From Bacteroidaceae bacterium (GTDB lineage: Bacteria; Bacteroidota; Bacteroidia; Bacteroidales; Barnesiellaceae_A): a stretch of 64,000 nucleotides of DNA. The position numbers and the translations under genes are program-made. This document shows, piece after piece, positions 11,593 to 37,265 of this stretch (positions are counted from its first letter, which is position 1; every line of letters begins with the position of its first letter). The stretch covers positions 54,603 to 118,602 of the forward strand of contig JAFUOV010000009.1 in assembly GCA_017481745.1 (NCBI GenBank), in the 5' to 3' direction. The notes beneath the pieces were generated by a model, which had not been told where the DNA came from, made no database searches, and saw only the letters and a program-made list of their open reading frames with translations.

Positions 11593-11919
11593 ATTTATAA
11601 TATTATTAAAAATTTTTGCTGCAAAGTAATATCTTTTTTCAAATTTCTACAATCACTATTTGTTGTGATATTTTTAAGAAATATTGAAAGATTGCATTTA
11701 TTGACAAGCTATAAATATGACCGAATATTGCGGTCGTTAATAATATTTTTAGTATCTTTACACCGTCTTAGTGTGAGTTTTCACATGGGAATATTTTTGT
11801 TTATAAAATATTTTAAACGTATTGACTTGAAATTGAGTGTGTTACACTGATTTTGAGGAGCCAAAAGTATGCTCTCCACTCCCCGGGCGGGTTTCGAAGC
11901 TAATACGATAATACATAAT

Positions 11920-12486
11920 ATGGTAGATGTTGACAAAGATACAATTCCGATGTGGTATGCCTTGAGTGCTCCGTATCGTAAAGAATTGGAGGCTCAACGA
12001 CTGCTCGAAAAAAATGAGGTGCGCAACTATCTCCCTATGCATTATCGCATCTTTACCATGAAAAGTGGTAAAAAGGTGAGAAAGCTTGTGCCGGTGATCA
12101 GCAATCTGCTTTTTGCATATACCTCTAAAACTCATCTGCAAGAGATAAAACAAGGCGTTCCGTTTCTGCAATATCGCACACGTCCCGAGGGGGGCAGAAA
12201 TGTCCCTATTATCGTGCCGGACAACCAGATGCAGCAGTTTATGGCTGTATGCGAAACTCATAACGAGCGCTTGATATATCTGCAACCCGATGAAATAAAT
12301 CTTGCCAAAGGTACACGTGTGCGTGTTATAGGCGGTCCTTTCGATGGCGTAGAGGGCATATTTGTCAAGGTGAAAGGTGCGCGTAGCAAGCGTGTGGTTG
12401 TCCTTATCAATGGTATTACAGCTGTTGCAACTGCCGAGATAGAACCCGAGTATATCGAGGTTGTGAACGAAGATAGTGATATTTGA
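11920..12486 (+). CDS. upxY: UpxY-family NusG-like transcription antiterminator; first gene of the polysaccharide locus
   Basis: Typical UpxY N-terminus (...MWYALSAPYRKELEAQRLLEK...VPVISNLLFAY) and C-terminal KOW (GTRVRVIGGPFDGVEGIFVKVKG). The ORF is open from 11869. ATG 11920 or 11950 is the more likely start. Confidence 0.85.
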   Translation: MVDVDKDTIPMWYALSAPYRKELEAQRLLEKNEVRNYLPMHYRIFTMKSGKKVRKLVPVISNLLFAYTSKTHLQEIKQGVPFLQYRTRPEGGRNVPIIVPDNQMQQFMAVCETHNERLIYLQPDEINLAKGTRVRVIGGPFDGVEGIFVKVKGARSKRVVVLINGITAVATAEIEPEYIEVVNEDSDI

Positions 12487-12516: not shown

Positions 12517-13833
12517 ATGAAAATAGCCGTAGCAGGAACAGGTTATGTAGGCTTGTCGATAGCCACATTGCTTGCCCAACACAACGAAGTGGTTGCGGTG
12601 GATATCGTTCCCGAAAAGGTCGATTTGATAAACAATCGCAAGTCGCCCATTCAAGACGAATACATTGAAAAGTATCTGGCAGAAAAGGAGTTACACCTGT
12701 GCGCGACTTTAGATGCCCGTGCAGCTTATGCCGATGCCGACTTGGTTGTGATTGCTGCCCCCACCAATTACGATAGTCAGAAGAACTTTTTTGACACATC
12801 GGCGGTAGAGAAGGTGATAGACCTTGTCATTGAGGTCAATCCCGATGCTATAATGGTCATTAAGAGTACTATCCCCGTAGGATATTGTCGCTCGTTGTAT
12901 GCCAAGTATGCCTTGCGTTTCCTCGCCGAGCCGGCTCTTAAAGGTAAAAAATTCAACCTGCTCTTTTCACCCGAGTTTTTGCGTGAGAGCAAGGCGTTGT
13001 ACGACAACTTATATCCAAGCCGCATCATAGTGGGTGTGCCCAAGCTCATTGAGAATTTTCAAGAGGAAAATCGAGCCATCGAGGCTATTGCCGACATCGA
13101 GCGCCTTACTCAAGCGGCTCAAACCTTTGCGCGACTATTGTGCCAAGGTGCTTTGAAAGAAGACATTGATGTGCTCTTTATGGGCTTGAAAGAGGCAGAA
13201 GCTGTAAAGCTCTTTGCCAATACATATCTCGCGCTGCGTGTTAGTTATTTCAATGAGTTGGATACTTACGCCGAGATGAAAGGTCTTGATACACAGGCTA
13301 TCATTACCGGTATTGGGTTAGACCCTCGTATCGGCACACACTACAACAATCCCTCCTTTGGTTACGGTGGCTATTGCCTGCCCAAAGATACCAAGCAGTT
13401 GCTTGCCAACTACAACGACGTGCCACAAAATATGATGACTGCCATTGTCGAGAGCAACCGCACGCGCAAGGACTTCATTGCCGATCAGGTGTTGGCAAAA
13501 GCCGGCTACTACACCGCCTCGAGCGCGTGGAATGCTGCACGTGAGCAAGAGGTAACGATAGGTGTCTATCGCCTTACAATGAAGTCAAACTCCGACAACT
13601 TCCGCCAAAGTGCCATACAAGGTGTAATGAAACGCATCAAAGCAAAGGGCGCAAAGGTTATTGTTTACGAGCCTACACTCGAGGACGGAGCTCTGTTCTT
13701 TGGTAGTGAGGTGGTAAATGATTTAGCTACATTCAAGTCTCGCTCGCAAGCCATCATAGCCAACCGCTACGATGCTTGTCTTGATGATGTGTGCGAGAAA
13801 GTATATACACGCGATATTTTCAAACGCGATTAA
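12517..13833 (+). CDS. ugd: UDP-glucose 6-dehydrogenase
   Basis: 438 aa. [14 protein letters not shown] Rossmann motif, catalytic GGYCLPKD, and FSPEFLRE. Confidence 0.93.
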
Positions 13834-13848
13834 TGCATAATTGACGTT

Positions 13849-15003
13849 ATGGCAGATAGTTACAAATACCATATCTTTTCGCCCTATCGTGTGTGCCCAT
13901 TGGGTGCGCACGTCGACCATCAACATGGATTGGTAACGGGCTTTGCATTTGACAAGGGTGTCGACTTCTGGTTCAACCCCACCGACGATGGTATGGTGCG
14001 CTTGCGCAGCCTCTCTTTCAGTGGTGCAGTAGAGTTCCCTATATCCGATACGGTGCGTATCAAGCAAGGACATTGGGGCGACTATGCACGTGGTGCCAAG
14101 TATGCGTTGTCAAAACGCTTCAAGTTGCATCGTGGTGTAGAGGGCGAAATAAAAGGCTCGTTGCCCGTTGGAGGCTTGTCGTCGAGTGCTGCCGTATTGG
14201 TTGCTTATGTAATGGCTTTTGCCAAGGCGAATGATATAGAACTCACCAAGATGGAGGTGATACGCATTGCCTCGGAGGCTGAGCGCGAATATATCGGACT
14301 GAACAACGGTATCCTCGACCAATCGTGCATCGTGTTGAGTGAGAAAGATTCGTTGTTATTTCTCGATACAGCTACGCAAGAATACCGGGTTATCGAGAAA
14401 AATCGGAATATGCCCGATTTCCACCTCGGAATATTTTTCTCGGGCTTGACACGTTCACTCGTTTCGAGCGACTATAACTTGCGCGTGAGCGAGTGCAAAA
14501 CCGCTGCGTGGAACATGTTGGCGTTCAACAATCAACCGCTCAAAACATTAGATAAGACCTTCTTGCGCGATATACCCAAAGAGCTATATGAGCAGACACG
14601 CGACCGTATGCCGGCTCGTTTTGCTCGTCGTGCCGAGCACTTCTATTCCGAGTATAAGCGTGTACGTAAGGGCGTTACGGCTTGGGAGACTGGTAACTTG
14701 AAACTGTTTGGTGAGCTTAGTTGCCAGAGTTGCGACAGCTCGATACACAACTATGAGTGTGGCTCGCCCGAGTTGATAGCTATTTACGACATTATGCGCA
14801 ACCTCGATGGTGTGTGGGGTGGTCGCTTCAGTGGTGCCGGTTTCAAGGGTGCTTGTATCGCTCTTGTCGACCCTGCCAAAGAGGATGCCATCAGAGAAAA
14901 ACTTACAGCCGAGTATCTGCGACAATTCCCCGAGTACGAAACAACATTTGAGGTGCACTTCTGCATGACCGACGATGGCGCACGATTTATAACAGAAAAT
15001 TGA
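13849..15003 (+). CDS. GHMP-family sugar-1-kinase, galacturonokinase (GalAK)-like
   Basis: 384 aa. GHMP motif II is present (GSLPVGGLSSSAAVLVAYVMAF). The N-terminal SPYRVCPLGAHVDHQHG and central NGILDQS match my memory of plant GalA-1-kinase. They do not match the GalK motif (GRVNLIGEHTDY). Confidence 0.75.
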   Translation: MADSYKYHIFSPYRVCPLGAHVDHQHGLVTGFAFDKGVDFWFNPTDDGMVRLRSLSFSGAVEFPISDTVRIKQGHWGDYARGAKYALSKRFKLHRGVEGEIKGSLPVGGLSSSAAVLVAYVMAFAKANDIELTKMEVIRIASEAEREYIGLNNGILDQSCIVLSEKDSLLFLDTATQEYRVIEKNRNMPDFHLGIFFSGLTRSLVSSDYNLRVSECKTAAWNMLAFNNQPLKTLDKTFLRDIPKELYEQTRDRMPARFARRAEHFYSEYKRVRKGVTAWETGNLKLFGELSCQSCDSSIHNYECGSPELIAIYDIMRNLDGVWGGRFSGAGFKGACIALVDPAKEDAIREKLTAEYLRQFPEYETTFEVHFCMTDDGARFITEN

Positions 15004-15007
15004 TAGT

Positions 15008-15745
15008 ATGATTAATATAGTAATAGCTGCCGGCTATGCAACACGTTTGGGCGAGTTGACTCGCAATTTTCCCAAACCTTTGCTCAAAATAGGAGACAAT
15101 ACCATACTCGGGCGCATGCTCGATGATATTGATACAATCCCCGAAATTACCGAGCATATCATTATTACCAACCACAAGTTTGCCCCCATTTTCCGAGAGT
15201 GGGTCGAGGGGTTACATTATACCAAGCCCATCACAATCGTCGATGATGGCACTTCGACCAACGAAACTCGATTGGGAGCTGTGTGCGACCTGTTGTATGC
15301 CATCAAAGAGCGTAACATCAACGACGACTTGTTGGTCGTCGCTGCCGATAATATCCTGTTTTTCAGCTTTAAAGAGTTTGTCGATTTTGCCCTTTCAAAA
15401 CAGACAAGCTGCATTATGTGCCACGAACAACCTTCAATCGAGAAACTGCAACGCACCGGTGTGATTGTCGTTGACGATAATTGGAAGGTGCTCAACATGG
15501 AAGAGAAACCCATCCAGCCCAAGAGCCATTGGGCTGTGCCTCCCTTCTACATCTATCTGAAAAAGGATATTGACTTGGTGCTTACTTCTATTGACAACGG
15601 TTGTGGCAAAGATGCGCCCGGCAATTTGGCACATTATATGGTCGAAAAAACCGATATGCACGCATGGAAAATGAGTGCCGGTCGTTTTGACATCGGTTCG
15701 CTTGATACATATCACGAGGCTTGCCAACGGTTTGGCTCAAAATAA
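15008..15745 (+). CDS. Sugar-1-phosphate nucleotidyltransferase
   Basis: 245 aa. The N-terminal AAGYATRLG...PKPLL signature (GxGxRL) marks the NTP_transferase fold. There is a 4-nt gap after the kinase. Confidence 0.85.
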   Translation: MINIVIAAGYATRLGELTRNFPKPLLKIGDNTILGRMLDDIDTIPEITEHIIITNHKFAPIFREWVEGLHYTKPITIVDDGTSTNETRLGAVCDLLYAIKERNINDDLLVVAADNILFFSFKEFVDFALSKQTSCIMCHEQPSIEKLQRTGVIVVDDNWKVLNMEEKPIQPKSHWAVPPFYIYLKKDIDLVLTSIDNGCGKDAPGNLAHYMVEKTDMHAWKMSAGRFDIGSLDTYHEACQRFGSK

Positions 15746-15771
15746 TTTGTAAGATAATTAAGAAATATATA

Positions 15772-16830
15772 ATGAAAGTTCTTGTAACAGGTGCTGCCGG
15801 CTTTATCGGCTCAAATCTTGTGGAACGATTGCTCAACACCGAGCCGGGTGTTGAAATTGTCAACCTCGATAGCGTTAACGACTACTACGACGTGAGTATC
15901 AAAGAATATCGCCTACGTCGTCTTGAAGATATTGCCGCACAGCATCCCGAATGCAAATATACATTTGTCAAAGGCAATCTTGCCGATCGTGCTCTCATCG
16001 ACCAACTCTTTGCCGAGCATGATTTTGAGATTGTTGTAAACCTTGCTGCACAAGCCGGTGTAAGATACTCTATCACCAATCCCGATGCGTATATCGAGAG
16101 CAACCTCATCGGTTTCTACAACATATTGGAGGCTTGTCGCCACAGCTACGACAATGGTCGTCGTGGTGTGCAACACCTTGTGTACGCCTCGTCGAGCTCG
16201 GTATATGGTAGCAACAAGAAAGTACCTTATAGTACCGACGACAAGGTCGATAACCCCGTCAGCCTATACGCTGCTACCAAAAAGAGCAATGAATTGTTGG
16301 CTCACTCATATAGTAAGTTGTATAACATACCCTCTACCGGGTTGCGCTTCTTTACCGTATATGGTCCTGCCGGACGTCCCGATATGGCATACTTCGGCTT
16401 CACCAACAAGTTGCGCAAGGGCGAGACTATCGAGATATTCAACTATGGCAACTGCAAGCGCGACTTTACCTTTGTCGATGATATCGTCGAAGGTGTTCAA
16501 CGTGTGATGCACCATGCTCCGCAAAAGCGCACCGGCGAAGATGGCTTGCCCGAGCCTCCCTATGCTGTATATAATATAGGTAATAGCAGCCCCGAAAATC
16601 TGTTGGACTTTGTCGATACATTGCAACAAGAACTTATCAGAGCGGGAGTCCTTCCTGCCGATTATGATTTTGAGGCGCACAAACGCCTTGTTCCCATGCA
16701 GCCGGGCGACGTTCCCGTAACGTATGCCGATACCACTGCATTGGAGCGCGACCTCGGCTTCCGTCCCTGCACACCGCTTCGCACCGGCTTGCGTGCATTT
16801 GCCGAGTGGTACAAAGAGTTCTACGGATAA
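15772..16830 (+). CDS. UDP-glucuronate 4-epimerase (CapI/LpsL-like SDR)
   Basis: MKVLVTGAAGFIGSNL, DYYDVSIKEYRL, SSSSVYG, YAATK, and a length of ~352 aa. I placed the start at ATG 15772 rather than the TTG at 15721. Confidence 0.85.
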   Translation: MKVLVTGAAGFIGSNLVERLLNTEPGVEIVNLDSVNDYYDVSIKEYRLRRLEDIAAQHPECKYTFVKGNLADRALIDQLFAEHDFEIVVNLAAQAGVRYSITNPDAYIESNLIGFYNILEACRHSYDNGRRGVQHLVYASSSSVYGSNKKVPYSTDDKVDNPVSLYAATKKSNELLAHSYSKLYNIPSTGLRFFTVYGPAGRPDMAYFGFTNKLRKGETIEIFNYGNCKRDFTFVDDIVEGVQRVMHHAPQKRTGEDGLPEPPYAVYNIGNSSPENLLDFVDTLQQELIRAGVLPADYDFEAHKRLVPMQPGDVPVTYADTTALERDLGFRPCTPLRTGLRAFAEWYKEFYG

Positions 16831-16853: not shown

Positions 16854-18101
16854 ATGAAGATATTGTGGTTGTCCAATTGCATACTCACCCACGAGCATAC
16901 CAGCTCGACCGGTTCGTGGCTACAAGCCATGTCGGCTGCAATATCCGAATGTCCCGATATAGAGTTGTATAACATCACTTTTGGCGCAAAAGGCAAGGTT
17001 GAACAACGCGATTGTGGCAAGATACGTCAATGGCTTGTGCCCAAAGGTCGCCTTGTCAATGGTGTTATCCCTCAAGATATTGCAACGACTATATGTGGCT
17101 TGATAGAGCACGTAAACCCCGATTTGGTACATATATGGGGTGTCGAGCATTATTGGGCGTTATTGTCGGCAAGAGGCTATATCAAGCAAAGAGTGCTCTT
17201 GGAAATTCAAGGTCTTAACTATACTTGTGCCGAGGCTTATTATGGTGGAATGACCCGACCGGATATAAAGTCGTGTGTCAGATTGCGTGATTATATATTG
17301 CCTCGTCGTCGCATCGAGAACATACAACGCTCACACGAAAAATGGGGCGAGTATGAAAAAGAGATGTTGGCAGCACACCGTTATATTTCAACACAATCGC
17401 AATGGGTGCGAGCTTCTATTGCGCCATATTGCAACAAGCAAGCACAGATATACCATACACGCATGGCGGTGCGCGAGGAGTTTATGAATACCGCTCCTTG
17501 GGGCATACCGCAAGAAGATGCCCCCATACAGCTCCTCAGCCTCTCTTCAAGTGCACTGCCATACAAGGGTGTGCACGTTGCTATCAAGGCTTTGGCAATT
17601 CTCAAACAATACTATCCAAACATTTGCCTCAAAATAGCCGGCAATTATCAGAACAATCGCAAAGCTATTAATAAGCATGGCTATGTGCGTTTCTTGGAAA
17701 AACTGATACAACGCCTCGGGCTCGAAAAGAATGTCGAGTTTGTAGGCGCTTTGAATGCAGAGGAGTTAATTGCCTTGATGAAGCAAACCCATGTTATGAT
17801 ACACTCGTCGTTTGTCGAGTCTTATTCTCTTGTTTTGGCAGAGGCTATGGCAGTAGGTGTGCCGAGTGTGGTTTCTTATGCCGGTGCAATGCCCGAGCTG
17901 ACCGAGTATGGAAAGGCGGCTTTGCTTTATACTCCTACCGACTACCGCATGTGTGCACATCAGGTTCGGCAATTACTTGAGGACAGAAATCTGGCAAGCT
18001 CCATTTCCGAGGCTGCTCGCTGTGTAGCTATGGAGCGTAACAATATAAATTCGGTTGTCGAAAGACAACTTGAGATATACAACCAAGTACTTATTAGTTG
18101 A
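16854..18101 (+). CDS. Glycosyltransferase family 4
   Basis: 415 aa. C-terminal GT-B motif SFVESYSLVLAEAMAVGVPSVVS (EX7E). Confidence 0.85.
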   Translation: MKILWLSNCILTHEHTSSTGSWLQAMSAAISECPDIELYNITFGAKGKVEQRDCGKIRQWLVPKGRLVNGVIPQDIATTICGLIEHVNPDLVHIWGVEHYWALLSARGYIKQRVLLEIQGLNYTCAEAYYGGMTRPDIKSCVRLRDYILPRRRIENIQRSHEKWGEYEKEMLAAHRYISTQSQWVRASIAPYCNKQAQIYHTRMAVREEFMNTAPWGIPQEDAPIQLLSLSSSALPYKGVHVAIKALAILKQYYPNICLKIAGNYQNNRKAINKHGYVRFLEKLIQRLGLEKNVEFVGALNAEELIALMKQTHVMIHSSFVESYSLVLAEAMAVGVPSVVSYAGAMPELTEYGKAALLYTPTDYRMCAHQVRQLLEDRNLASSISEAARCVAMERNNINSVVERQLEIYNQVLIS

Positions 18102-18104
18102 TAT

Positions 18105-19091
18105 ATGCGCACGATAGGTTTGGTCGTTAGTCATAAGTCGGGTGAAAAAAGAAGAGCAGTATTGCCCGATGATATAAAGAGGAACGTAAAACATCCCGGT
18201 CAACTCTATTTTGAAAAAGGGTATGGCGAGGCTATTGGTATTTCTGACGATTGTTATACAGCCTTGGGATGCCACATCGTGTCGCGCGATGAGGCTTTGT
18301 CGTGCGACGTTATTGTCGACGTGAAATTGGGCGATGCCGATTATTTGGAGCAGCTAACACCCGGAAAGATATTGTTTGGTTGGGCTCATGCAGTACAAAA
18401 TGTCGATTTTACAAGCAAGATGCTACATGCCAACCACACCGTTATAGCGTGGGAAAACATCTTTGAACAAGGACGATACATTTTCTACCGCAACAGAGAG
18501 GTTGCCGGCGAGGCTGCCATCATGCATGCCTATCGTTATTGTGGAAAGATGCCCTACGACACCAAAGTGGCTATATTGGGTAATGGTCAGACTGCCAAGG
18601 GTGCACTGCGCATATTGCATGGTTTGGGTGCCGAGGTCGATGTATATAACCGTCGTTTGGAGAAGTTGTTCCGTGAGAGAATGTATGAGTATGATGTGTT
18701 GGTAAATTGCATCTTATGGGATACCACACGTCAAGACCGCATCATCTATCGTGAGGACTTGTCAAAGATGAAACCCGGAACACTCATTATCGACATCAGT
18801 TGCGACCCTTATCTCGAGATAGAAACTTCGCATCCTACAACAATAGACGACCCGGTGTATGTGGTGGATGGTGTGATACATTATGCCGTTGATAACACAC
18901 CGGCAATGTACCCAATCACCGTTTCAAGAGTATTGAGCGAGGGCATTTCGCGTTATCTCGACATCGTTGCCGGCGAAGATTTGAAAAACTATCCTCCATC
19001 GCTGGGTAATGCTGTAGCAATCGAGGCAGGACATATTTGCGACGAACAGATACGTATTTTCAGAGAGAATAGAAACCTCTTCTGTAAGTAG
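18105..19091 (+). CDS. AlaDH/PNT-fold NAD(P)-dependent dehydrogenase; N5-(carboxyethyl)ornithine synthase-like (opine-type synthase)
   Basis: 328 aa. N-terminal GEKRRAVLPDD, dinucleotide fold VAILGNGQTAKGALRILHGLGAEVDVYNRR, and GTLIIDISCD. The size and layout recall CEOS/saccharopine-dehydrogenase-like enzymes. Confidence 0.6.
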   Translation: MRTIGLVVSHKSGEKRRAVLPDDIKRNVKHPGQLYFEKGYGEAIGISDDCYTALGCHIVSRDEALSCDVIVDVKLGDADYLEQLTPGKILFGWAHAVQNVDFTSKMLHANHTVIAWENIFEQGRYIFYRNREVAGEAAIMHAYRYCGKMPYDTKVAILGNGQTAKGALRILHGLGAEVDVYNRRLEKLFRERMYEYDVLVNCILWDTTRQDRIIYREDLSKMKPGTLIIDISCDPYLEIETSHPTTIDDPVYVVDGVIHYAVDNTPAMYPITVSRVLSEGISRYLDIVAGEDLKNYPPSLGNAVAIEAGHICDEQIRIFRENRNLFCK

Positions 19092-19124
19092 GCTGCTTTG
19101 TAAAAAGGAAGAAGGTAGGTCGAT

Positions 19125-20291
19125 ATGAAAAAGTTGAGCAAGAAAATCAAACTCTTTATTTCGCATTTTCGCAGCATCTTCTCGTTGTATTCGACACTGC
19201 CTATCAGAAAACGTTTCGCAATTCTATCTGACTACCGCAAGTTATATAAAAACAAAGGACTGAATGTCGATGAGTATTACGAGTATGGCTTTGAAACACA
19301 AAGCAATCATTTCAAGAAAACATTCTTGGGCGTAAACGAGCAACGTTTTTATCTCGACTTTCTCAATCCTATTAAATATTACATCTTATCACGCAATAAA
19401 TATTTTACCCACAAAATATTAGAAAACACAGGTATACGCAAGACAACGTTGTATTGCTACTACCGACCCGAGGGTGTGGTAGAGCACAGCAACGAGGTGG
19501 CAACAAACATCGCCGATGTAGTGCGTATCTTGCAACAACGCAATGTTGCCTCTTGTGTCATCAAAGACACCGAAAACTCGCATGGCGAAGGGGTGGTGGT
19601 TGTTAAACAAATAACCTACTTCGATAACGATTGTTTGCTACATCTCTACAATGGCGAGAGGGCGCATCTGTCGAGTATGCTGGGCAAGCATCCGCTTATA
19701 TTTGAGAGCCTTATAAAGCAAACACAGCAGTTGGAGGCTTTTAATAAATCGTCGGTCAACACCATACGGTTTATGACAACGCTCTATCCCGATGGTGAGG
19801 CTCGTTTGGTGGCAACTTTCATAAAGATTGGTCGCAAAGGCAGTTGTGTTGACAATGCCGGTAGTGGCGGAAATGTAGATGCTTGTATTGACACAGAGAG
19901 TGGTGCATTGAAGTATGTGATTAGATACGACGGCATGCGCGATGTTACCGATATCACTCGCCATCCCGATACCGACGTACAGCTATCGGGTGTCGTGATT
20001 GAGAATTGGGACAAGATAAAGGCTCAAGTACTTCAATATCAAAAGGCTTACCCCTATGCCAAGGCTGCCGGTTGGGACATCGCCATAACCGACGAGGGGG
20101 CTGTGGTGATTGAAGTAAACGATATGTGGGACCGCACAGGACAGCTTTTTATACGCACCGGATGGCGCAACGAAATAAGAGATTGCTACAATGCTTGGCA
20201 ACAGACCGGCGCAAAATATATCCTCTACCGTCAGCAGAACGAATTGACATTAAAGCATCTGTTGAAAATATCGAAACAAGAGTGCGATTGA
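19125..20291 (+). CDS. ATP-grasp protein, sugar-transfer-associated type (ATPgrasp_ST-like)
   Basis: 388 aa. SVNTIRFMT, GSCVDNAGSGGNVDACID and GWDIAITDEGAVVIEVND. It is a paralog of 41483-42559. Confidence 0.7.
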   Translation: MKKLSKKIKLFISHFRSIFSLYSTLPIRKRFAILSDYRKLYKNKGLNVDEYYEYGFETQSNHFKKTFLGVNEQRFYLDFLNPIKYYILSRNKYFTHKILENTGIRKTTLYCYYRPEGVVEHSNEVATNIADVVRILQQRNVASCVIKDTENSHGEGVVVVKQITYFDNDCLLHLYNGERAHLSSMLGKHPLIFESLIKQTQQLEAFNKSSVNTIRFMTTLYPDGEARLVATFIKIGRKGSCVDNAGSGGNVDACIDTESGALKYVIRYDGMRDVTDITRHPDTDVQLSGVVIENWDKIKAQVLQYQKAYPYAKAAGWDIAITDEGAVVIEVNDMWDRTGQLFIRTGWRNEIRDCYNAWQQTGAKYILYRQQNELTLKHLLKISKQECD

Positions 20292-20404
20292 GATGCTAAT
20301 ATATTCTGCACTGCCCGGTGAAATGAGGATTATGCAAGCCCCACAGAGCGAAGGCGTTCATAAATTAATTATGAAAAGTTTGTAATTAATTATTCAGGAC
20401 AATA

Positions 20405-21547
20405 ATGGAGGTTAAAATATTCTTTGCCGGCGACTTTTGTTCAAAGCCTTCGACCCGTAATATCTCGGTTGATGACAGCCTGAAGAATATAATTACGGAT
20501 AGCGATATAAGTGTTGTCAATTTTGAAGTACCTCTCAAGCCTCATTGTTCCAATCTGCCCGAGGTAGAATATGAGCGTTTCTTTCAGAACGATGATACTA
20601 TCGAGTTCTTGCGCAACTTGGGTTTCAATCTCTTTTCTATTGCCAACAATCACATTTTCGATTGGGGCGTAGAGGGCTACAAACACACAGCCGATGCACT
20701 GGGCGATGCTGCCTTTGGTGCAGGACAATATGATGAGGCTTATAGCGTAAAAGTCGTCGAGTGCAATGGCATCCGCATAGGGTTTTTGGCTCTCTGTTAT
20801 GCTGCTCGTCATGGCGTATTTAACGATGTAGCCGACCATAGCGGTTATGGTTGTGCTTATCTGAACGATCTGAAGGTAAACCACATAATACATGCCGAGA
20901 AGAAAAACGTCGATTATCTCTTTGTTTTGCCTCATGCCGGTCTTGAGTATAAAGATGCTCCCATACCCGAGTTGGTGGCACGATACAGAGACTTTATAGA
21001 TTGGGGTTGCGATGGCGTTATTGCTTCACATCCGCATTGTCCGCAAGGGTGGGAGGTATACAACGAGAAACCTATCTTCTACAGCTTGGGTAACCTTTTC
21101 TTCAATAGCAAAGATACGGTCGACTATGTTGCCGACAAGCCGCATTGGTATGAAGGAATGTGCGTGCAGTTGGTTCTATGCGATAAGAAGATAAAATTTG
21201 AAGTAATCAATACGCTGAATATTCGCAACCGACAACTTGTTGTCGACACATCGCTCGAGCGCGACAATCATAACAACTATCTCTGCCGGTTGCTGTATGA
21301 TGCCGACCTCTATAAACAATATCTACAATCGTTGCTGGTCGATGCCGAGGACGAATATCTGCCTCTCTTATATCGTGCCTTCGTGCCCACGACAGGTAAG
21401 AAAATATTGAAGAATGCTATCCGCATGGCTCGCATGGCGCACAAAGGAAGGTTGTTGTCGCTACGCCTTCCGGCTCGTCCCATCATCATCGACGATGCCA
21501 AAAATGCCATGTTGGTGCGGTTGTTCAACACGAAGTATAATAAATAA
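20405..21547 (+). CDS. CapA/PgsA-family (PGA_cap, metallophosphatase-fold) protein
   Basis: 380 aa. FFAGDF, ISVVNFEVPL, FSIANNHIFDWG, VLPHAGLEY, GVIASHPHCPQG and YSLGNLFFN match the poly-gamma-glutamate capsule CapA family pattern. Confidence 0.8.
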   Translation: MEVKIFFAGDFCSKPSTRNISVDDSLKNIITDSDISVVNFEVPLKPHCSNLPEVEYERFFQNDDTIEFLRNLGFNLFSIANNHIFDWGVEGYKHTADALGDAAFGAGQYDEAYSVKVVECNGIRIGFLALCYAARHGVFNDVADHSGYGCAYLNDLKVNHIIHAEKKNVDYLFVLPHAGLEYKDAPIPELVARYRDFIDWGCDGVIASHPHCPQGWEVYNEKPIFYSLGNLFFNSKDTVDYVADKPHWYEGMCVQLVLCDKKIKFEVINTLNIRNRQLVVDTSLERDNHNNYLCRLLYDADLYKQYLQSLLVDAEDEYLPLLYRAFVPTTGKKILKNAIRMARMAHKGRLLSLRLPARPIIIDDAKNAMLVRLFNTKYNK

Positions 21548-21568: not shown

Positions 21569-22459
21569 ATGGCTCGTTTTTTTAAGCAAATAAAGGAGTA
21601 TATCCGTACAAATATTACCCACTTGTCGCCCACACTCAATACTCGCATAAGGTATTGGCGTGCATTTCGCAAGCCTATCGACTTGAAGAACCCTCGCACC
21701 TTGGACGAGAAGATACAATGGCTCAAGCTCAATACCTACTATAAAAACCCTTTGGTAACGCAGTGTGCCGACAAATATGCAGTGCGCGACTATGTTAAGG
21801 ATTGTGGTTGTGGCGAAATACTCAATCCCCTATATTTTGCGTGGGATAGTGTCGACCAGATTAATTGGGACGAGCTACCCAATAGTTTTGTGATAAAATG
21901 GAACTTTGGCTGTGGCTACAATCTGATATGCCGCGACAAGTCGCAACTCGATATAGAGCAAGCCAAGGCTAAACTTTGCGAGTGGCGTAAAGGTCATAAA
22001 ACATATTACCTGACATACTCCGAGATGCAGTATAAGGATATAAAACCCAAACTCATCTGCGAGAAACTTATCGAAACAGCCGATGGAAGCCTGCCACAAG
22101 ACTATAAACTATATTGTTTCAACGGTCGAGCCGAGTATATTCTCGTATGCTCGGGGCGCGACGATGCAGGTCAAGGTGCCAAATACTACTTCTTCGACTC
22201 GCAATGGCAGCTGCAACGCCTCAATCGTGCCGGTAAGGCTGCTCCGCAAGACTTTACATTGCCCAAACCTCAAGGTATTGAACAATTGTTTCACTATGCC
22301 GATGCGCTATCTAAGCCCTTCCCATTTGTTCGTGCCGATTTCTATCTCGAAGAGGGTAGGGTGATATTTGGCGAACTTACCTTTACGCCTTGTGGCGGAT
22401 TGGACAATAATCGTCTGCCCGAAACACAACTGCTCTTTGGCGACAAGGTGAAACTTTAA
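21569..22459 (+). CDS. ATP-grasp fold amidoligase, TupA-like (1 of 4)
   Basis: 296 aa. LKNPRTLDEKIQWLKL, DKYAVRDYV, FVIKWNFGCGYNLIC, DYKLYCFNG and FGELTFTPCGG. Confidence 0.85.
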   Translation: MARFFKQIKEYIRTNITHLSPTLNTRIRYWRAFRKPIDLKNPRTLDEKIQWLKLNTYYKNPLVTQCADKYAVRDYVKDCGCGEILNPLYFAWDSVDQINWDELPNSFVIKWNFGCGYNLICRDKSQLDIEQAKAKLCEWRKGHKTYYLTYSEMQYKDIKPKLICEKLIETADGSLPQDYKLYCFNGRAEYILVCSGRDDAGQGAKYYFFDSQWQLQRLNRAGKAAPQDFTLPKPQGIEQLFHYADALSKPFPFVRADFYLEEGRVIFGELTFTPCGGLDNNRLPETQLLFGDKVKL

Positions 22460-22473
22460 AACTACACAGCACC

Positions 22474-23643
22474 ATGTGCAATCCCAATATAGCAATAGTA
22501 GTTGTAGGTTACAATCGGGTCGATTCGATTGCTCGATTGCTCGATACGCTCGATAAGGCATACTATCCGCAAGTCTCAGTACCCCTTATCATCAGCATAG
22601 ACAAGAGCGATACCGATGCCGTAGAGCGCTATGCCGACGGCTTCGATTGGCAGCATGGCAGAAAGCAAGTGGTCAAGCACGAGCAACGAATGGGGTTGCG
22701 CAACCATATACTCAGTCTGGGACAGCACTTCGACCATTACGATGCCCTCATTGTGCTCGAAGACGACCTCTCGGTGTCGCCCAACTTCTATCTCTATGCC
22801 ATGCAGGCAGTAGAGAAATATCACGACGACGACCGCATAGCCGGCATCAGCCTCTTCAGCTTTGCCATAAACTACCAGACGGGGCACTTCTTCCAACCCA
22901 TCAAAGACCACAACGACGTCTACTTCATGAACTGCGCCCAATCGTGGGGACAAGTGTGGATGAAACGTCAATGGCTCCGTTTCTACGAGTGGTACAACGA
23001 CCATACCCACTTCCCCCAACAGTCGCCCCTGTTGCCACCATATATATGCACATGGCCTGCGACGTCGTGGCTCAAGTATCACACACGCTATTGTGCCGAG
23101 GAAAATCTCTATTTCGTGTATCCCTATGTAGCATATACCACCAACAATGGCGATACAGGCACACACAACGGCGGCTCATATATCAACCTCAACCAAGAGC
23201 GATTGCAACGAGGTCGCATCACAACCCTGCGATTGCCCCATTTCGACGAAGAAGAAACAGTGTGCTACGATGTCTTTTTCGAGAACAAAAAGCTCGCTCA
23301 AGTGTTAAACCTCGACGACGACCAATGTTGCGTAGACCTCAATGGCGAGCGAGGCAACAGAGAAAACAAGCGATATTGGCTCACAACCAAGCAGTGCAAC
23401 TACAAGATTTGCCGGCAGTTTGGTGTGCGCTATCGCCCCATAGACGAGAACATTTATGCTGCAACACCCGGATGCGAAATATATCTCTACGACACAACAC
23501 AAGTCGTCGAGAATACATTCAAACGCACATTCTCGCACCTGCTATACGACATACGCATCGACACCATATCGCGCGTAATACGCACCTATGGCAAGAAAAG
23601 AGCCATTCGCGAAGCCATCAAACGCCTTTTCCGCCGAAAATAA
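22474..23643 (+). CDS. Glycosyltransferase, GT-A fold (GT2-like)
   Basis: 389 aa. N-terminal IAIVVVGYNRVDSIARLLDTL...ISIDKSD...LEDDLSVSP (DxD-like). Confidence 0.7.
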   Translation: MCNPNIAIVVVGYNRVDSIARLLDTLDKAYYPQVSVPLIISIDKSDTDAVERYADGFDWQHGRKQVVKHEQRMGLRNHILSLGQHFDHYDALIVLEDDLSVSPNFYLYAMQAVEKYHDDDRIAGISLFSFAINYQTGHFFQPIKDHNDVYFMNCAQSWGQVWMKRQWLRFYEWYNDHTHFPQQSPLLPPYICTWPATSWLKYHTRYCAEENLYFVYPYVAYTTNNGDTGTHNGGSYINLNQERLQRGRITTLRLPHFDEEETVCYDVFFENKKLAQVLNLDDDQCCVDLNGERGNRENKRYWLTTKQCNYKICRQFGVRYRPIDENIYAATPGCEIYLYDTTQVVENTFKRTFSHLLYDIRIDTISRVIRTYGKKRAIREAIKRLFRRK

Positions 23644-23654
23644 CGCTATAAATT

Positions 23655-24323
23655 ATGCCTTCAATCATCAAATACATACGTCGCAAAGTTGAACTCGCAC
23701 GGCTCAAAAAACGCCATGTCATCATACACAAGCACGCCGATTTCAACCGCAACACACAATGCGAAGGCTATAACATCGTACACCCCGGCTCGTCGGTAAA
23801 AGACACCACACTCGGCTATGCCACATACATAGGGCTCGATAGCAAGCTCGAAAGATGCCGTATAGGACGATTTTGCTCCATCGGCGGCAACGTATCGGTA
23901 ATAGACTCGCGCCACCCCACCGACACATTCGTGTCGACACACCCCATATTCTTCAGCCCAAACAAACAATGCGGCAGAACATTCACCGACCAATTGCTGT
24001 ACCCCGAAATACTCAGCGTAGACGGCTATGCAGCCATTATAGGTAACGACGTGTGGATAGGCAACGACGTGAGAATAATGGGCGGATGCACCATTGGCGA
24101 TGGCGCCATAGTAGCAGCAGGAGCAGTAGTAACCCGCGATGTACCACCATACGCCATCGTAGCAGGCGTACCCGCCAAGGTAATACGCTACCGTTTCAGC
24201 CCCGAGCAAATAGAAACACTCCTCAACACACAATGGTGGAATTGGTCAGTCGACAAGATACAGCAACACCACAGCCAATTCCTCAACATCGACCAGTTCA
24301 TAGCCGGCAACCCAGCCACATAA
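23655..24323 (+). CDS. Hexapeptide-repeat O-acetyltransferase (CatB/Vat-like)
   Basis: 222 aa. Left-handed beta-helix repeats ([53 protein letters not shown]). Confidence 0.85.
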
Positions 24324-24326
24324 CAC

Positions 24327-25181
24327 ATGAAAGAAAAAATATACAACATAGTCATCAAAATATTAGTAACCCTGTTTGGACGTCGATTTGTTTACGCCAT
24401 ACGATACTACAGGCTGCGCAAGCGTTGGCCCAATTTCGACCAACCGCAAGACCTCAGCGAGTATCTCATAAACAAAATAACAACCAACCAGACCCACACA
24501 TACGCACCCCTCGCCGACAAAATAGAAGTACGACAATACGTCGCCTCAAAAGGACTATCGTCGATACTACTGCCACACTACGGCTATTGGAGCAATGCAC
24601 ACGACATCAACTTCGATACACTCCCACCGAAGTTCGTACTCAAAACCAACAACGGCGTAGACTCGCAAAACGTATACATCTGTCGCGACAAATCCACATT
24701 CGACATCCCGTCAGTCTGCAAGAAACTCAACAAAGCACTCAAGGAAAAGTCAGTCTACGAGTACCACTACAACCTTATCGAACCCAAAATACTCTGCGAA
24801 CAACTCCTGGAGACCCAACAAGGAACACAACCCACCGACTACAAGTTCCTCTGCATCAACGGAAAAGTAGTAGACATAATAGCCACGATGGACCGTTTTG
24901 AGCACAAGCGATCAATAATAATGACCCCCGATTGGCAATACGTCGACCGTATGTATCACCAATACATCCCCGATACATTACCACCACGACCCAACCAATT
25001 ACAACAAATGATAAACATAGCACAAACCCTCTCGGCAGACTTTGACGTAGTACGAGTCGACCTATACAACCCCGGCGAAAAAATATACTTCGGCGAACTC
25101 ACATTCACCCCCTCAGCCGGACTCCTCGACGCCCGCACAACCCAAGCCATAACCCACTACGCCACCCTGCTAAGGGGATAA
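24327..25181 (+). CDS. ATP-grasp fold amidoligase, TupA-like (2 of 4)
   Basis: 284 aa. DKIEVRQYV, FVLKTNNGVDSQNVYICRDK, DYKFLCINGK and YFGELTFTPSAG. Confidence 0.85.
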   Translation: MKEKIYNIVIKILVTLFGRRFVYAIRYYRLRKRWPNFDQPQDLSEYLINKITTNQTHTYAPLADKIEVRQYVASKGLSSILLPHYGYWSNAHDINFDTLPPKFVLKTNNGVDSQNVYICRDKSTFDIPSVCKKLNKALKEKSVYEYHYNLIEPKILCEQLLETQQGTQPTDYKFLCINGKVVDIIATMDRFEHKRSIIMTPDWQYVDRMYHQYIPDTLPPRPNQLQQMINIAQTLSADFDVVRVDLYNPGEKIYFGELTFTPSAGLLDARTTQAITHYATLLRG

Positions 25182-25207: not shown

Positions 25208-26146
25208 ATGAAAAACAGAATCGCAATTATAGCAGTATATTTTGGTCCGTTACCTAATTATTTACCCCTATGGTTAAAATCTTGTGAGTATAATGATTTG
25301 ATCGATTTTTATTTAATAACAGACCAAAATGTAGCACAACATCCATCTAATGTCATAGTAAAACCTATGACATTAGGAGAGATGAAAAATCGTGCTCAAT
25401 CAATCTTACAATTTGATGTTAGTTTGGAAAGACCTTATAAATGTTGTGATTTTAAAGTAATATATGGATTGATTTTTCAAGATTATGTAAAGGATTATGA
25501 TTATTGGGGACATTGTGATCTTGATTTAATATGGGGAGATTTGTCATATTTTTTCCAAAAGTACAATTTGTATAATTATGACAAATTCCTCGTTCTAGGG
25601 CATCTATCTTTATATAGAAATACAGATGATGTTAATAATGCCTTTAGAAAAGACGGTTGTTCAAAAGATTTTCATACAATTTTTTCTAATGATAAATCTT
25701 ATGGTTTCGATGAGAAAAATGGAATTTATAGAATAATGCTTCATAATAATTATAAGGTCTTTGATAGAGATATTTATATAGACATTACTACATTGTATAA
25801 GCGTTATAGATGTAATGCAGAATGTTATAATTATCAAACATATTATTGGAAAGAAGGAAAAATATATTATATATATTATGATGAAAAAGTTTTGAATACC
25901 AAAGAATATATGTATATCCATTTCCAAAAAAGACCTAATTATGAACTGACGTTTGATTGTAAAGATGTAAAAGAATTTTATATTACAAATAGTGGCTTTT
26001 ACATCAAAGATAAAGAACCCTCTATACCCGAAATAAATAAGTTAAACCCTTATAGAGGAAAGTTGTATGAAATGATAGAAAAGACCTATAATGTATATAA
26101 GAAGCGTATAATGTTAAAATTAAAATCGTGGAAAATACTACACTAA
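25208..26146 (+). CDS. Conserved polysaccharide-locus protein, putative glycosyltransferase (DUF6625-like)
   Basis: 312 aa. IAIIAVYFGPLPNYLPLWLKSCEYNDLIDFYLITDQ and YWGHCDLDLIWGDL resemble a family recurrent in Bacteroidales CPS loci. The function is unproven. Confidence 0.5.
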   Translation: MKNRIAIIAVYFGPLPNYLPLWLKSCEYNDLIDFYLITDQNVAQHPSNVIVKPMTLGEMKNRAQSILQFDVSLERPYKCCDFKVIYGLIFQDYVKDYDYWGHCDLDLIWGDLSYFFQKYNLYNYDKFLVLGHLSLYRNTDDVNNAFRKDGCSKDFHTIFSNDKSYGFDEKNGIYRIMLHNNYKVFDRDIYIDITTLYKRYRCNAECYNYQTYYWKEGKIYYIYYDEKVLNTKEYMYIHFQKRPNYELTFDCKDVKEFYITNSGFYIKDKEPSIPEINKLNPYRGKLYEMIEKTYNVYKKRIMLKLKSWKILH

Positions 26147-27606
26147 AGTCTTTGACGGCTCAAGCAACAAAATGGTCTTCTGTGACAGAGATTGCAAGCC
26201 GTCTAGTTTTACCATTTATTAATATGGTGTTAGCAAGATTGTTAACACCAGAAGCTTTTGGTGTAATAGCAACAGTCAACATGATTGTTAGTTTTGCAGA
26301 GATATTTACAGATGCTGGCTTTCAAAAATATCTTGTGCAACATGATTTTGAAGATGAAGAAGAACTTGACAATAATACGAATGTAGCATTTTGGACAAAT
26401 CTCTTAATATCCGTTGTTTTATGGCTATTGATATTTTTTTTCTCAGAGCAACTTGCTATATTAGTAGGGAATCCGGGTTTAGGAAATGTTATAGTTATTG
26501 CATCTTTAGTTTTGCCGGTTAATGCTTTCAGTAGTATTCAGATGGCTCGCTATAAAAGAGATTGGAATTTTAAGTCATTGTTTTATGTGCGTTTAGTGTC
26601 TATATGTGTTCCTTTATTTGTAACATTGCCATTAGCATATATAACAAAAAGTTTCTGGGCGTTAGTTATTGGAACATTATCAGGAGCTGTTGTAAATGCT
26701 GTCATTTTAACTTGCAGGTCTCGATGGAAACCTAAGTTGTTTTTTTCAATAAAGAAATTGAAAGAAATGTTTTCATACAGTTGGTGGATAATGATGGAGT
26801 CTATATCAACGTGGATGACCTCCTATTTCGATACTTTTATTGTTGGTATATTTTTATCTACTTTTTATGTCGGTATATATAAGACATCAATGATAACAGT
26901 AAACCAAATTATATCTTTAATAACATCGGCAACATCGATGCCATTATTTGTGGCACTTTCACGCTTAAAAAATGATAGGGATGCGTTAATAGATATGTAT
27001 AATAATTATATGCAAGCAGTTGCATTCTTCGTTTTCCCATTAAGTATTGGAATTTGGATTTATAGAGATTTTATAACATTTATTCTTCTTGGTTCACAAT
27101 GGAAAGAAGCTGCTGATTTTATTGGCTTATGGGGTTTATTGTCATCTATTAGCATTGTTCTAGGAACTTATGCAAATGGTTTGTATAATGCTATTGGAAA
27201 AACTTATATCTCATTCTTAGTAGCATTAATAAATATTTTATATATGATACCTATTTTATTTTGGTCCGCGCCGTTAGGTTTTGAGACCTTGTATATATCA
27301 CGTTCCAGTGTGAGGATTTTGTTTGTTATTATACAATTATTAATGATGAGTATTTATATAAAATATCCTATCTTTAGTTTAATAAAAAAACTTTTACCAA
27401 TAATTCCTTCCACAGTATTAATGGCAATTGTTGCGCTATTGTTAAATATGATTAGTCAAGCTTATTTGTGGAATTTTGTATGTATATTTATATGTATATT
27501 TGTATATTTTACATCAATGTTTATAATAAATAAAAAATTACTTAATAATTCATTACAGACACTAGGTGTAAATATTAAGATGTTAAAAAAGAGTAATCAT
27601 AGCTAA
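26128..27606 (+). CDS. wzx: Wzx-type oligosaccharide flippase (MOP superfamily)
   Basis: 492 aa with about 12-14 TM segments and an N-terminal ...LARLLTPEAFGVIA motif. The GTG start overlaps the upstream gene by 19 nt. Confidence 0.85.
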   Translation: MENTTLKSLTAQATKWSSVTEIASRLVLPFINMVLARLLTPEAFGVIATVNMIVSFAEIFTDAGFQKYLVQHDFEDEEELDNNTNVAFWTNLLISVVLWLLIFFFSEQLAILVGNPGLGNVIVIASLVLPVNAFSSIQMARYKRDWNFKSLFYVRLVSICVPLFVTLPLAYITKSFWALVIGTLSGAVVNAVILTCRSRWKPKLFFSIKKLKEMFSYSWWIMMESISTWMTSYFDTFIVGIFLSTFYVGIYKTSMITVNQIISLITSATSMPLFVALSRLKNDRDALIDMYNNYMQAVAFFVFPLSIGIWIYRDFITFILLGSQWKEAADFIGLWGLLSSISIVLGTYANGLYNAIGKTYISFLVALINILYMIPILFWSAPLGFETLYISRSSVRILFVIIQLLMMSIYIKYPIFSLIKKLLPIIPSTVLMAIVALLLNMISQAYLWNFVCIFICIFVYFTSMFIINKKLLNNSLQTLGVNIKMLKKSNHS

Positions 27607-27804
27607 TATAGAATTGTTTGTTTTAACCATAAAATTAAATTCTATATATTATTTTTATAAAACCATTAGCAATTTCTTTTGGGATTATATCAATGACCAT
27701 AATGCTTATAATTAAATAATTATTTGAATTAAACCGTTTTAATAGCTATGTGCATAACCTATAATGTAATAGCAATATCAATATAAACTATATTTATAAT
27801 AAAG

Positions 27805-28779: not shown

Positions 28780-28900
28780 AAACGAAATAATGTATTATTA
28801 GATTCTTATTGTATTACTTTCGTTATAAGTAGTAATCCAATAAAGATAAATAATAATAGATTTGTATAATTACCTTTAATAATATTGTTATTAGTAATAT

Positions 28901-29815: not shown

Positions 29816-29829
29816 ATAAAGATTATGCT

Positions 29830-37254: not shown

Positions 37255-37265
37255 AAATATATAAG

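Follow-up and report, generated by a model that had tools for sequence, protein, structure and literature searches.

A conserved dehydrogenase and ATP-grasp ligase partnership in surface-glycan loci and a candidate amino-acid decoration cassette of a Bacteroidales-type capsule

Introduction

Uronic acids in O-antigens and capsules can carry amides of amino acids or of opine-type compounds, which shape the charge and antigenicity of these glycans; the structures of such decorations, for example that of Providencia rustigianii O14, have been known for decades. Which genes make and attach the opine-type residues is the question raised by the DNA described here, a stretch of 64,000 nucleotides (hereafter the window) from a Bacteroidaceae bacterium (assembly GCA_017481745.1, contig JAFUOV010000009.1, positions 54,603 to 118,602). 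On its + strand, in a capsule-type locus, ugd and epimerase-like genes and a GT4 glycosyltransferase gene are followed by three consecutive open reading frames (ORFs) for a dehydrogenase of the AlaDh/PNT fold (18105-19091; hereafter DH), a ligase of the ATPgrasp_ST family (19125-20291; hereafter ST) and a CapA-family protein with a PGA_cap domain (20405-21547). A sequence-only reading of this region had compared the dehydrogenase with N5-(carboxyethyl)ornithine synthase (CEOS) and proposed that the trio could make an opine-type amino acid and ligate it to galacturonic acid (GalA). Its ORFs and their order were confirmed, and its three domain assignments are correct, all Pfam scores lying far above the gathering thresholds; its interpretation held up in part.

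In an NADPH-dependent reaction, CEOS reductively condenses pyruvate with the side-chain amine of ornithine or lysine, giving N-(1-carboxyethyl) amino acids. A glycan of Shewanella fidelis is said to carry an amide of GalA with carboxyethyl-lysine. N-epsilon-[(S)-1-carboxyethyl]-N-alpha-(D-galacturonoyl)-L-lysine occurs in Providencia rustigianii O14 and alanopine in P. alcalifaciens O35, and alanine amides of uronic acids are also known in glycans (PMC10609480). In the literature searched on CEOS-like genes in glycan loci, on carboxyethyl-lysine genetics and on Proteus/Providencia O-antigen genetics, we found no gene assignment; a paper on Proteus O-antigen genetics mentions neither lysine nor ATP-grasp genes. 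ATP-grasp amidation of capsule uronic acids is known, and the module is a variation on it; for the widespread partnership of a dehydrogenase with an amide ligase, no earlier description was found. The gene set offered here comprises a DH clade located beside amide ligases in at least five phyla, a probable partner ligase, and a soluble enzyme of the CapA family, among the relatives of which only an epimerase has been characterised. If the reading proposed below is true, amide decorations would become predictable from genomes, including those of abundant gut Bacteroidales and Oscillospiraceae, and the large 'CapA family' in polysaccharide loci would gain a function unrelated to poly-gamma-glutamate.

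Partnership of the dehydrogenase with ATP-grasp ligases

Homologues 60-82% identical to DH are very numerous. A scan of species-representative genomes gave 68 DH loci in Clostridia/Oscillospiraceae, Christensenellales, Lachnospiraceae, Negativicutes, Bacteroidales (Alistipes, Paludibacteraceae and Muribaculaceae), Fibrobacter, Eggerthella, and one metagenome-assembled genome (MAG) each of Chloroflexota and Alphaproteobacteria. The ORFs of each locus were predicted and scored against profiles derived from this same set of loci. The counts refer to the 64 loci with a full-length DH, which span Bacillota, Bacteroidota, Fibrobacterota, Actinomycetota and Chloroflexota in addition to the alphaproteobacterial MAG. 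A TupA- or ST-type ATP-grasp gene directly adjoins the DH gene in 43 of them. Clearly, DH and ATP-grasp ligases form a recurrent partnership in surface-glycan loci. The two enzyme types are also joined in a single protein, P0241 (784 aa), with an ATP-grasp_4 domain at about residues 112-290 and an AlaDh_PNT dehydrogenase at about residues 437-769; this natural fusion is a Rosetta-stone link between them. A search begun from homologues of the PGA_cap protein independently reached loci with AlaDh_PNT and ATPgrasp_ST genes.

The complete cassette of the window, in the order GT4, DH, ST, PGA_cap, TupA-like ligase, GT2-like glycosyltransferase and hexapeptide transferase, was found again in a relative (L079/L080) with a DH 82% identical to that of the window. 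Minimal Bacteroidales loci consist of only ugd (with or without an epimerase gene), DH, a TupA-like ligase, a flippase, a polymerase, glycosyltransferases (GTs) and an acetyltransferase. One of the loci reached from the PGA_cap homologues (L077/L078) encodes a TupA-like ligase, ugd, seven ATPgrasp_ST proteins, two PGA_cap proteins and a DH 48% identical to that of the window. The exact DH, ST and PGA_cap proteins of the window were each found on 10-12 public contigs, in 90% clusters of 20-33 members; they are products of real conserved genes, not of chance ORFs. We read the cassette as a possible system that decorates, with amino acids, the uronic acid in a capsular polysaccharide of Bacteroidales type, operating in the four steps set out below, and hold this reading with somewhat less than even confidence.

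In Oscillospiraceae-type contigs (L007-L025; for example L014, 7755-9986), DH comes after two divergently oriented proteins of about 743 aa with a C-terminal ATPgrasp_ST domain, and the neighbouring genes encode a TagF-like glycerophosphotransferase, a nucleotidyltransferase and TagG/H-like ABC transporter components. For the contigs of L010, L019 and L022, which have an Oscillospiraceae-type DH locus, the MAG records name Collinsella aerofaciens, Escherichia coli or Phascolarctobacterium; these labels are probably binning errors.

Family and fold of the dehydrogenase

DH (328 aa) is a member of the AlaDh/PNT superfamily, matching AlaDh_PNT_N (PF05222) with 71.3 bits (cutoff 30.4) and AlaDh_PNT_C (PF01262) with 88.1 bits (cutoff 23). 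Its best solved relative by sequence is the L-alanine dehydrogenase (AlaDH) 2eez (E 4e-28). The AlphaFold2 (AF2) model of DH (pLDDT 94.8) was matched best by M. tuberculosis AlaDH (Rv2780, 2vhx; TMq 0.83-0.86) and also by PntA dI structures; saccharopine dehydrogenase was absent among the top 50 fold matches. The catalytic residues E14, R16, K74, H95 and D234 are kept in DH and conserved in its clade. R16, K74, H95 and D234 are the equivalents of Arg15, Lys75, His96 and Asp270 of AlaDH, and they are common to the whole superfamily and hence non-discriminating. Judged by fold and active site, DH is predicted to be a competent, NAD(P)-dependent enzyme of keto-acid reductive amination, in a subfamily of its own.

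AlaDH or transhydrogenase identity was rejected. DH reached 106.2 bits against the AlaDH equivalog TIGR00518, the cutoff of which is 391.85, and the scores with the AlaDH and PntA NCBIfam models are all far under the cutoffs. It is shorter than AlaDH (328 versus about 370 aa), two deletions removing some 40 residues of insertions specific to AlaDH. Among 1.84 billion cluster representatives, a search with DH gave only 62 clusters at E<1e-30, and in a neighbor-joining (NJ) tree of the full-length representatives, the AlaDH clade stood apart from a superclade holding DH. This superclade comprises the CEOS clade, several clades of 310-330 aa, the clade of the window DH, and a gammaproteobacterial clade of about 371 aa labelled 'CEOS' by NCBI. 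A clustering of DH with alanine dehydrogenases, which would have spoken against the sequence-only reading, was thus not found.

Using the L. lactis CEOS sequence (EC 1.5.1.24) taken from a plasmid record, we compared DH with this enzyme directly. The two share the AlaDh/PNT fold, a compact size (310 versus 328 aa), the E/R/K/H/D active site and an Asn in place of a Met; they align with 33% identity (E 1e-45), the NAD-binding region with a one-residue gap only. Homologues 73% identical to the window DH are labelled CEOS by JGI, an automatic annotation. However, L. lactis CEOS has an Arg where DH has Asp179 in the cofactor-binding strand, it falls in another NJ subclade, and its gene, ceo, stands by itself, away from any ligase or glycan genes. 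Against the CEOS-clade profile, L. lactis Ceo itself scored 469 bits and DH 204 bits. Strict CEOS orthology was rejected on identity, subclade and profile score.

With the clade profiles, DH scored 204 bits for CEOS, 217 bits for AlaDH and 224 bits for the gammaproteobacterial clade, whereas scores among these three groups are just 93-121 bits; we therefore regard the window clade as a slowly evolving, 'central' lineage. At conserved positions that separate the groups, DH sides against AlaDH in six cases with the gammaproteobacterial clade and in one case with CEOS (N130, in a column among the six); in two cases, it sides with AlaDH against CEOS or the gammaproteobacterial clade. Asn130 stands where AlaDH has a conserved Met, and Asn is common to the CEOS and gammaproteobacterial clades. 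By these comparisons, DH appears to represent a highly conserved compact clade of 327-328 aa, at about the same profile-score distance from AlaDH, CEOS and the gammaproteobacterial clade and orthologous to neither AlaDH nor CEOS. Its compact architecture, N130 and its position in the NJ tree group it with the CEOS-type clades and not with AlaDH. The term 'CEOS-like' used in the sequence-only reading thus seems apt at the level of the superfamily clade but not as a statement of orthology.

The main rival explanation concerns the product of DH. As a compact variant of AlaDH dependent on ammonia, the enzyme could do no more than provide additional L-alanine or some other simple amino acid, for the ATP-grasp ligases to link to the uronic acid as an amide. 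From the sequence, such an activity is possible: the best solved relatives by both sequence and fold are AlaDHs, all catalytic residues of AlaDH are conserved, the AlaDH profile score is as high as the CEOS score, and alanine amides of uronic acids are known (PMC10609480). The very high conservation across phyla and the existence of stand-alone copies are also features that resemble an enzyme of central metabolism. Against this stand the AlaDH equivalog score far under the cutoff, the missing AlaDH-specific insertions and the position outside the AlaDH clade, and the replacement of the conserved Met by the Asn of the CEOS and gammaproteobacterial clades. DH also differs from AlaDH in that it is encoded beside ligases in a glycan locus; in such loci, enzymes that make abundant proteinogenic amino acids are rare, and the tight pairing with ligases, together with the fusion protein, suggests a dedicated precursor. 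We regard this alternative as unlikely, though to be taken seriously; a simple amino acid is a possible product of DH, and an opine-type product is plausible but unproven.

The ligase partner of the dehydrogenase

Immediately downstream of the PGA_cap gene, a further ORF (21569-22459, + strand) encodes a TupA-like ATP-grasp amidoligase (PF14305, 151.8 bits; cutoff 25). In an NJ tree of 44 TupA-like proteins from DH loci, it fell in a clade of 11, and the genes of all ten other members directly adjoin a DH gene; the three other TupA-like proteins of the window fell elsewhere. ST (388 aa; PF14397, 133.1 bits, cutoff 31.4) was placed, in the ST tree, nearest to ligases encoded close to PGA_cap genes (those of L079/L080, L077_5 and L078_0), not in the clade of DH-adjacent STs, and it matches an alpha-L-glutamate-ligase-like family weakly. 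Because of these tree positions, the cassette is tentatively divided into two sub-modules. The sequences suggest DH plus the TupA-like ligase as one, with ST plus the PGA_cap protein as the other, inserted between them. The ligase partner of DH is probably the TupA-like protein. As for the earlier view of the trio as a ligation module, the association of DH with ATP-grasp enzymes in uronic-acid glycan loci was upheld, but the likeliest ligase for DH lies beyond the three genes.

In the HS:2 glucuronamide system of Campylobacter jejuni, the amine donors are ethanolamine phosphate or serinol phosphate, made by pyridoxal-phosphate (PLP) enzymes; according to work of the Raushel laboratory, the enzymes that make the donor are reportedly encoded nearby. 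The TupA-like domain Cj1438C of this system forms amides at the C6 carboxylate of glucuronic acid (GlcA) in the capsule (PMC11800379). By analogy, we propose that the TupA-like ligase of the window amidates the C6 carboxylate of GalA or GlcA. The window differs from HS:2 in that the neighbouring enzyme is an AlaDH-fold dehydrogenase rather than a PLP enzyme, and in that its ligase is free-standing, whereas Cj1438C is a domain of a glycosyltransferase. For ST, we propose the addition of an amino-acid residue, in cooperation with the PGA_cap protein.

The CapA-like protein

The PGA_cap protein (380 aa; PF09587, 149.2 bits, cutoff 27) shares its Pfam family with Bacillus CapA/PgsA. The sequence-only reading had taken it for a possible accessory or trimming factor and pointed to the poly-gamma-glutamate capsule machinery. 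Its N-terminus is a core beta-strand of the fold, not a membrane anchor; no CapB- or CapC-like gene is present among the annotated capsule-locus genes of the window; and it is associated with ATP-grasp ligases instead of Mur-ligase-type ones. The role of a CapA/PgsA synthetase component was rejected for want of an anchor and of a CapB/CapC partner; nor does the protein resemble a trimming factor, its apparent likeness being to MslH-type epimerases.

The sole solved relative of the PGA_cap protein by sequence is MslH (8gq9), which is also the best fold match (E 5e-18, TMq 0.61-0.64), followed by YmdB-type phosphoesterases (E 7e-9). MslH is a Ca-dependent epimerase of a peptide C-terminal residue, the C-terminal Trp of a lasso peptide, with the dyads His88/Asp91 and His295/Asp11 and the ligands Glu44, Asn87, His259 and His261 (PMC10406935). 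E44, N87, H88, D91 and H295 of MslH align to E41, N82, H83, D86 and H211 of the PGA_cap protein, which are invariant in 18 homologues. D10 corresponds to Asp11 by position only; H259 and H261 are unaligned, with H177 as a candidate. Like the window protein, MslH is soluble, and the residue that it modifies bears a free alpha-carboxylate, a feature also of uronoyl-amino acids (PMC10406935). An amino acid joined to a uronic acid by an amide at its alpha-amine looks like the C-terminal end of a peptide, which makes an epimerase role reasonable. By analogy, the PGA_cap protein is proposed to be a soluble, metal-dependent, MslH-type epimerase of a glycan-linked amino acid with a free alpha-carboxylate. 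It differs from MslH in having an extra C-terminal helical region (residues 284-378) and in that its substrate would be glycan-linked and not a peptide.

The DH, ST and PGA_cap genes may not belong to one pathway. DH would then pair with the TupA-like ligase only, ST and the PGA_cap protein would build an oligo- or poly-amino-acid side chain of gamma-glutamyl-like or teichuronopeptide-like type, and the PGA_cap protein would serve as a hydrolase or processing enzyme. In keeping with this, as many as seven ATPgrasp_ST genes run together with two PGA_cap genes in L077/L078, flippase-PGA_cap units are repeated in L076, and the window ST clusters with PGA_cap-proximal STs and weakly matches the glutamate-ligase-like family. 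The calcineurin-like fold, moreover, is mostly hydrolytic, and the next-best fold matches are phosphoesterases. However, L077/L078 and L076 also carry a DH, no CapB or CapC partner is found in the window, and MslH is by far the best structural match; the equivalents of its His88/Asp91 dyad and of His295 are conserved, that of Asp11 (Asp10) matching by position only. A separation into unconnected pathways is, in our view, improbable to about the same degree as a simple amino-acid product of DH.

Two arrangements of such genes were recorded in other genomes. The seven ATPgrasp_ST and two PGA_cap genes of L077/L078 form one run. In Prevotella sp. E9-3 (L076; CP091786.1), there are three successive flippase-PGA_cap units, and a distant 402-aa AlaDh_PNT protein is encoded beside YdjC, PGA_cap, ATPgrasp_ST and GNAT proteins.

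A proposed pathway

We propose a pathway of four steps for the cassette. In the first, ugd and the 4-epimerase-like short-chain dehydrogenase/reductase (SDR) would give UDP-GlcA and UDP-GalA, and the GT4 enzyme would place the uronic acid in the repeat unit. In the second, DH, whose fold and catalytic residues are those of the superfamily, would reductively couple an alpha-keto acid, most likely pyruvate, with an amine. The product would be a free non-proteinogenic amino acid, most likely of the N-(1-carboxyethyl) opine type, such as the carboxyethyl-lysine or -ornithine that L. lactis CEOS makes. In the third, the TupA-like ligase encoded at 21569-22459, a member of the recurrent partnership, would, by analogy with Cj1438C, turn the uronic-acid C6 carboxylate into an acyl phosphate and form an amide with the alpha-amino group of the DH product. 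In the fourth, ST and the soluble PGA_cap protein would act as the second sub-module: ST would add or extend an amino-acid residue, and the MslH-like protein would epimerise the residue bearing a free alpha-carboxylate from L to D.

Several observations weigh against this pathway. The identity of DH to L. lactis CEOS, 33%, is low, and the clade profiles do not single out CEOS; the PDB holds no CEOS structure, so there are no defined CEOS substrate residues to compare; and because all AlaDH catalytic residues are present in DH, an ammonia-dependent activity is possible. The DH, TupA and ST trees are NJ trees without support values, and the ligase was assigned to the DH product by neighbourhood and tree position only. 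DH is stand-alone in 20 of the 64 loci, in unrelated contexts. The gene ugd was seen within 10 kb of DH in only 14 of the 64, and the Oscillospiraceae loci look teichoic-acid-like, without an obvious uronic acid. The PGA_cap protein shares 15-16% identity with MslH, and with the MslH equivalog NF038314, it gave 42.3 bits (cutoff 700) in a local match confined to residues 182-232. No glycan structure is known for any carrier of the window DH clade.

DH could also act after ligation. The ATP-grasp enzyme would first couple the uronic acid to lysine, ornithine or a diamino acid, and DH would then carboxyethylate the free side-chain amine, or the amine of an amino sugar, on the lipid-linked repeat unit. 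This order would yield a final structure identical to the known carboxyethyl-lysine amides, DH is encoded between the glycosyltransferase and the ligases, and it is the constant partner of ligase families that vary (TupA, ST and RimK-like). However, the stand-alone DH genes, a third of the total, have no glycan genes around them; their neighbours (nitroreductase, ArsC, aldo-keto reductase, AzlCD and EamA genes) show no common theme, and in the DH tree they are scattered among the ligase-linked ones. That DH stays 60-78% identical in phyla whose glycan loci differ greatly speaks for a small substrate that does not vary, and CEOS, the characterised relative, uses free amino acids. Because stand-alone copies are interspersed and conservation extends across phyla, DH likely makes a free small molecule, and the stand-alone copies render action after ligation less likely; we consider it distinctly improbable.

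That DH is an unrelated metabolic gene located by chance in a capsule locus is scarcely credible: stand-alone homologues do occur in heterogeneous contexts, but an ATP-grasp gene is directly adjacent in two thirds of the loci across phyla, the cassette is kept where DH is 82% identical, a fusion protein exists, and Gammaproteobacteria show the same partnership with a different ATP-grasp family.

Gammaproteobacterial sister loci

The sister clade of about 371 aa is found in Aeromonas, Shewanella, Vibrio cholerae, Providencia rettgeri, Edwardsiella and on an E. coli plasmid. In P. rettgeri (L086), the O-antigen locus lies 3' of cpxA and comprises, in this order, wzi, a RimK-like ATP-grasp gene overlapping the DH gene, wzx, two GT genes, an EpsG-type polymerase gene, a 4-epimerase-like SDR gene, ugd and wza; the Shewanella locus is organised like it. 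These loci resemble that of the window in that DH overlaps or abuts an ATP-grasp gene in the company of ugd, a 4-epimerase-like SDR gene, a flippase gene and GT genes, and the clade gives the highest profile score for the window DH and shares the six discriminating residues. They differ in that their DH is 32% identical to the window DH and has a long insertion, in that the partner ligase shows no match to the TupA or ST profiles built from the DH loci, and in the absence of a PGA_cap gene; the likeness is one of genes alone. Judged by sequence annotation, the gene content of the P. rettgeri and Shewanella loci is that expected for a carboxyethyl-lysine amide of GalA, in genera with glycans of this kind.

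More broadly, pairs of a compact AlaDH-fold dehydrogenase and an ATP-grasp ligase might be the long-missing genes for opine-type decorations of surface glycans, among them N-(1-carboxyethyl)-lysine or -ornithine and alanopine. The module would be widespread among gut anaerobes, for Bacteroidales capsules and Oscillospiraceae wall polymers, and would occur in a sister form in O-antigen loci of Providencia, Shewanella and Aeromonas; soluble CapA-family proteins would then be a new class of epimerases acting on glycan-linked amino acids. This wider proposal is a tentative one that we think more apt to fail than to hold.

A complete O-antigen-like cluster was noticed on an E. coli IncFIB/IncY plasmid (L074; NZ_AP027746.1, 166133-177188). 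It contains genes for a WecA-like protein, an ATP-grasp enzyme, a CEOS-annotated DH, a flippase, GTs and an EpsG polymerase, and its DH is 99% identical to that of Aeromonas hydrophila, which suggests a plasmid-borne, horizontally moved glycan locus.

Organisation of the capsule locus

On the + strand, the capsule-type locus begins with an UpxY-like NusG gene (11869-12486), and its last gene, for a GT4 enzyme, ends at 43807. The first enzyme gene is ugd (12517-13833), encoding UDP-glucose 6-dehydrogenase with the N-terminal, central and C-terminal UDPG_MGDP_dh domains of Pfam; NF011631 gave 514 bits and TIGR03026 301 bits (cutoff 190). We infer that it supplies UDP-GlcA, the sugar bearing the carboxylate. 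An ORF at 15721-16830 encodes an SDR resembling UDP-glucuronate 4-epimerase (Pfam Epimerase, 186 bits), with 5u4q (E 2.7e-110) and the B. cereus UDP-GlcA 4-epimerase 6zl6 (E 3.5e-35) as best solved relatives. It presumably converts UDP-GlcA to UDP-GalA, and translation probably starts at a codon further downstream than the TTG at 15721. Between ugd and this gene lie a galactokinase-like GHMP kinase gene (13849-15003) and an NTP_transferase gene (15008-15745), all on the + strand, and the same four genes occur together in L001; the two (13849-15745) may provide a sugar-1-phosphate activation or salvage route.

The first conserved gene of the cassette encodes the GT4 glycosyltransferase (16854-18101, + strand; Glycos_transf_1, 108 bits), and the same 415-aa GT4 gene lies directly 5' of DH in L079/L080. 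The TupA-like gene is followed, also on the + strand, by a GT2/GNT-I-like glycosyltransferase gene (22474-23643; weak GNT-I and Glycos_transf_2 matches), which has a counterpart in the matching position in L079/L080. The last conserved gene encodes a hexapeptide-repeat acyltransferase (23655-24323, + strand; Hexapep, 47 bits), present in the same position in L079/L080 and also in the minimal DH-TupA loci L081-L084. The module thus reaches at least 22459 and probably 24323. The gaps measure 3 nt between GT4 and DH, 33 nt between DH and ST, 113 nt between ST and PGA_cap, and 21 nt between PGA_cap and the TupA-like gene. No terminator-like site was found between the cassette genes on the + strand, and promoter and terminator scans gave nothing meaningful inside the cassette. 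Because of the short gaps and the lack of + strand terminator-like sites between genes, the genes from GT4 to the TupA-like ligase are likely to form a single operon.

Altogether, eight ATP-grasp enzymes are encoded in the capsule locus (19125-20291, 21569-22459, 24327-25181, 27805-28779, 28901-29815, 38493-39689, 39692-40882 and 41483-42559): two ATPgrasp_ST, four TupA-like, and two with ATP-grasp_4 and LAL_C2 domains (L-amino-acid-ligase type). This number suggests an unusually heavy decoration with amino acids or peptides. The UpxY-like NusG gene, the TonB receptors encoded in the window, and nearest homologues in Alistipes, Paludibacteraceae and Prevotella point to Bacteroidales.

A block of 28-29% GC (26000-32000) lies within this locus, the GC content of which is 44-50%. 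It contains genes for a flippase, two TupA-like proteins, a Wzy-like protein and a GT4 enzyme, and it looks like a mosaic or horizontally acquired insert. Further downstream, the ORFs at 36070-37254 (UDP-GlcNAc 2-epimerase) and 37017-38477 (DegT aminotransferase, with a GTG start) share 238 nt. The Pfam match of the aminotransferase begins at residue 97, and the true start of its gene is probably at about 37250-37300.

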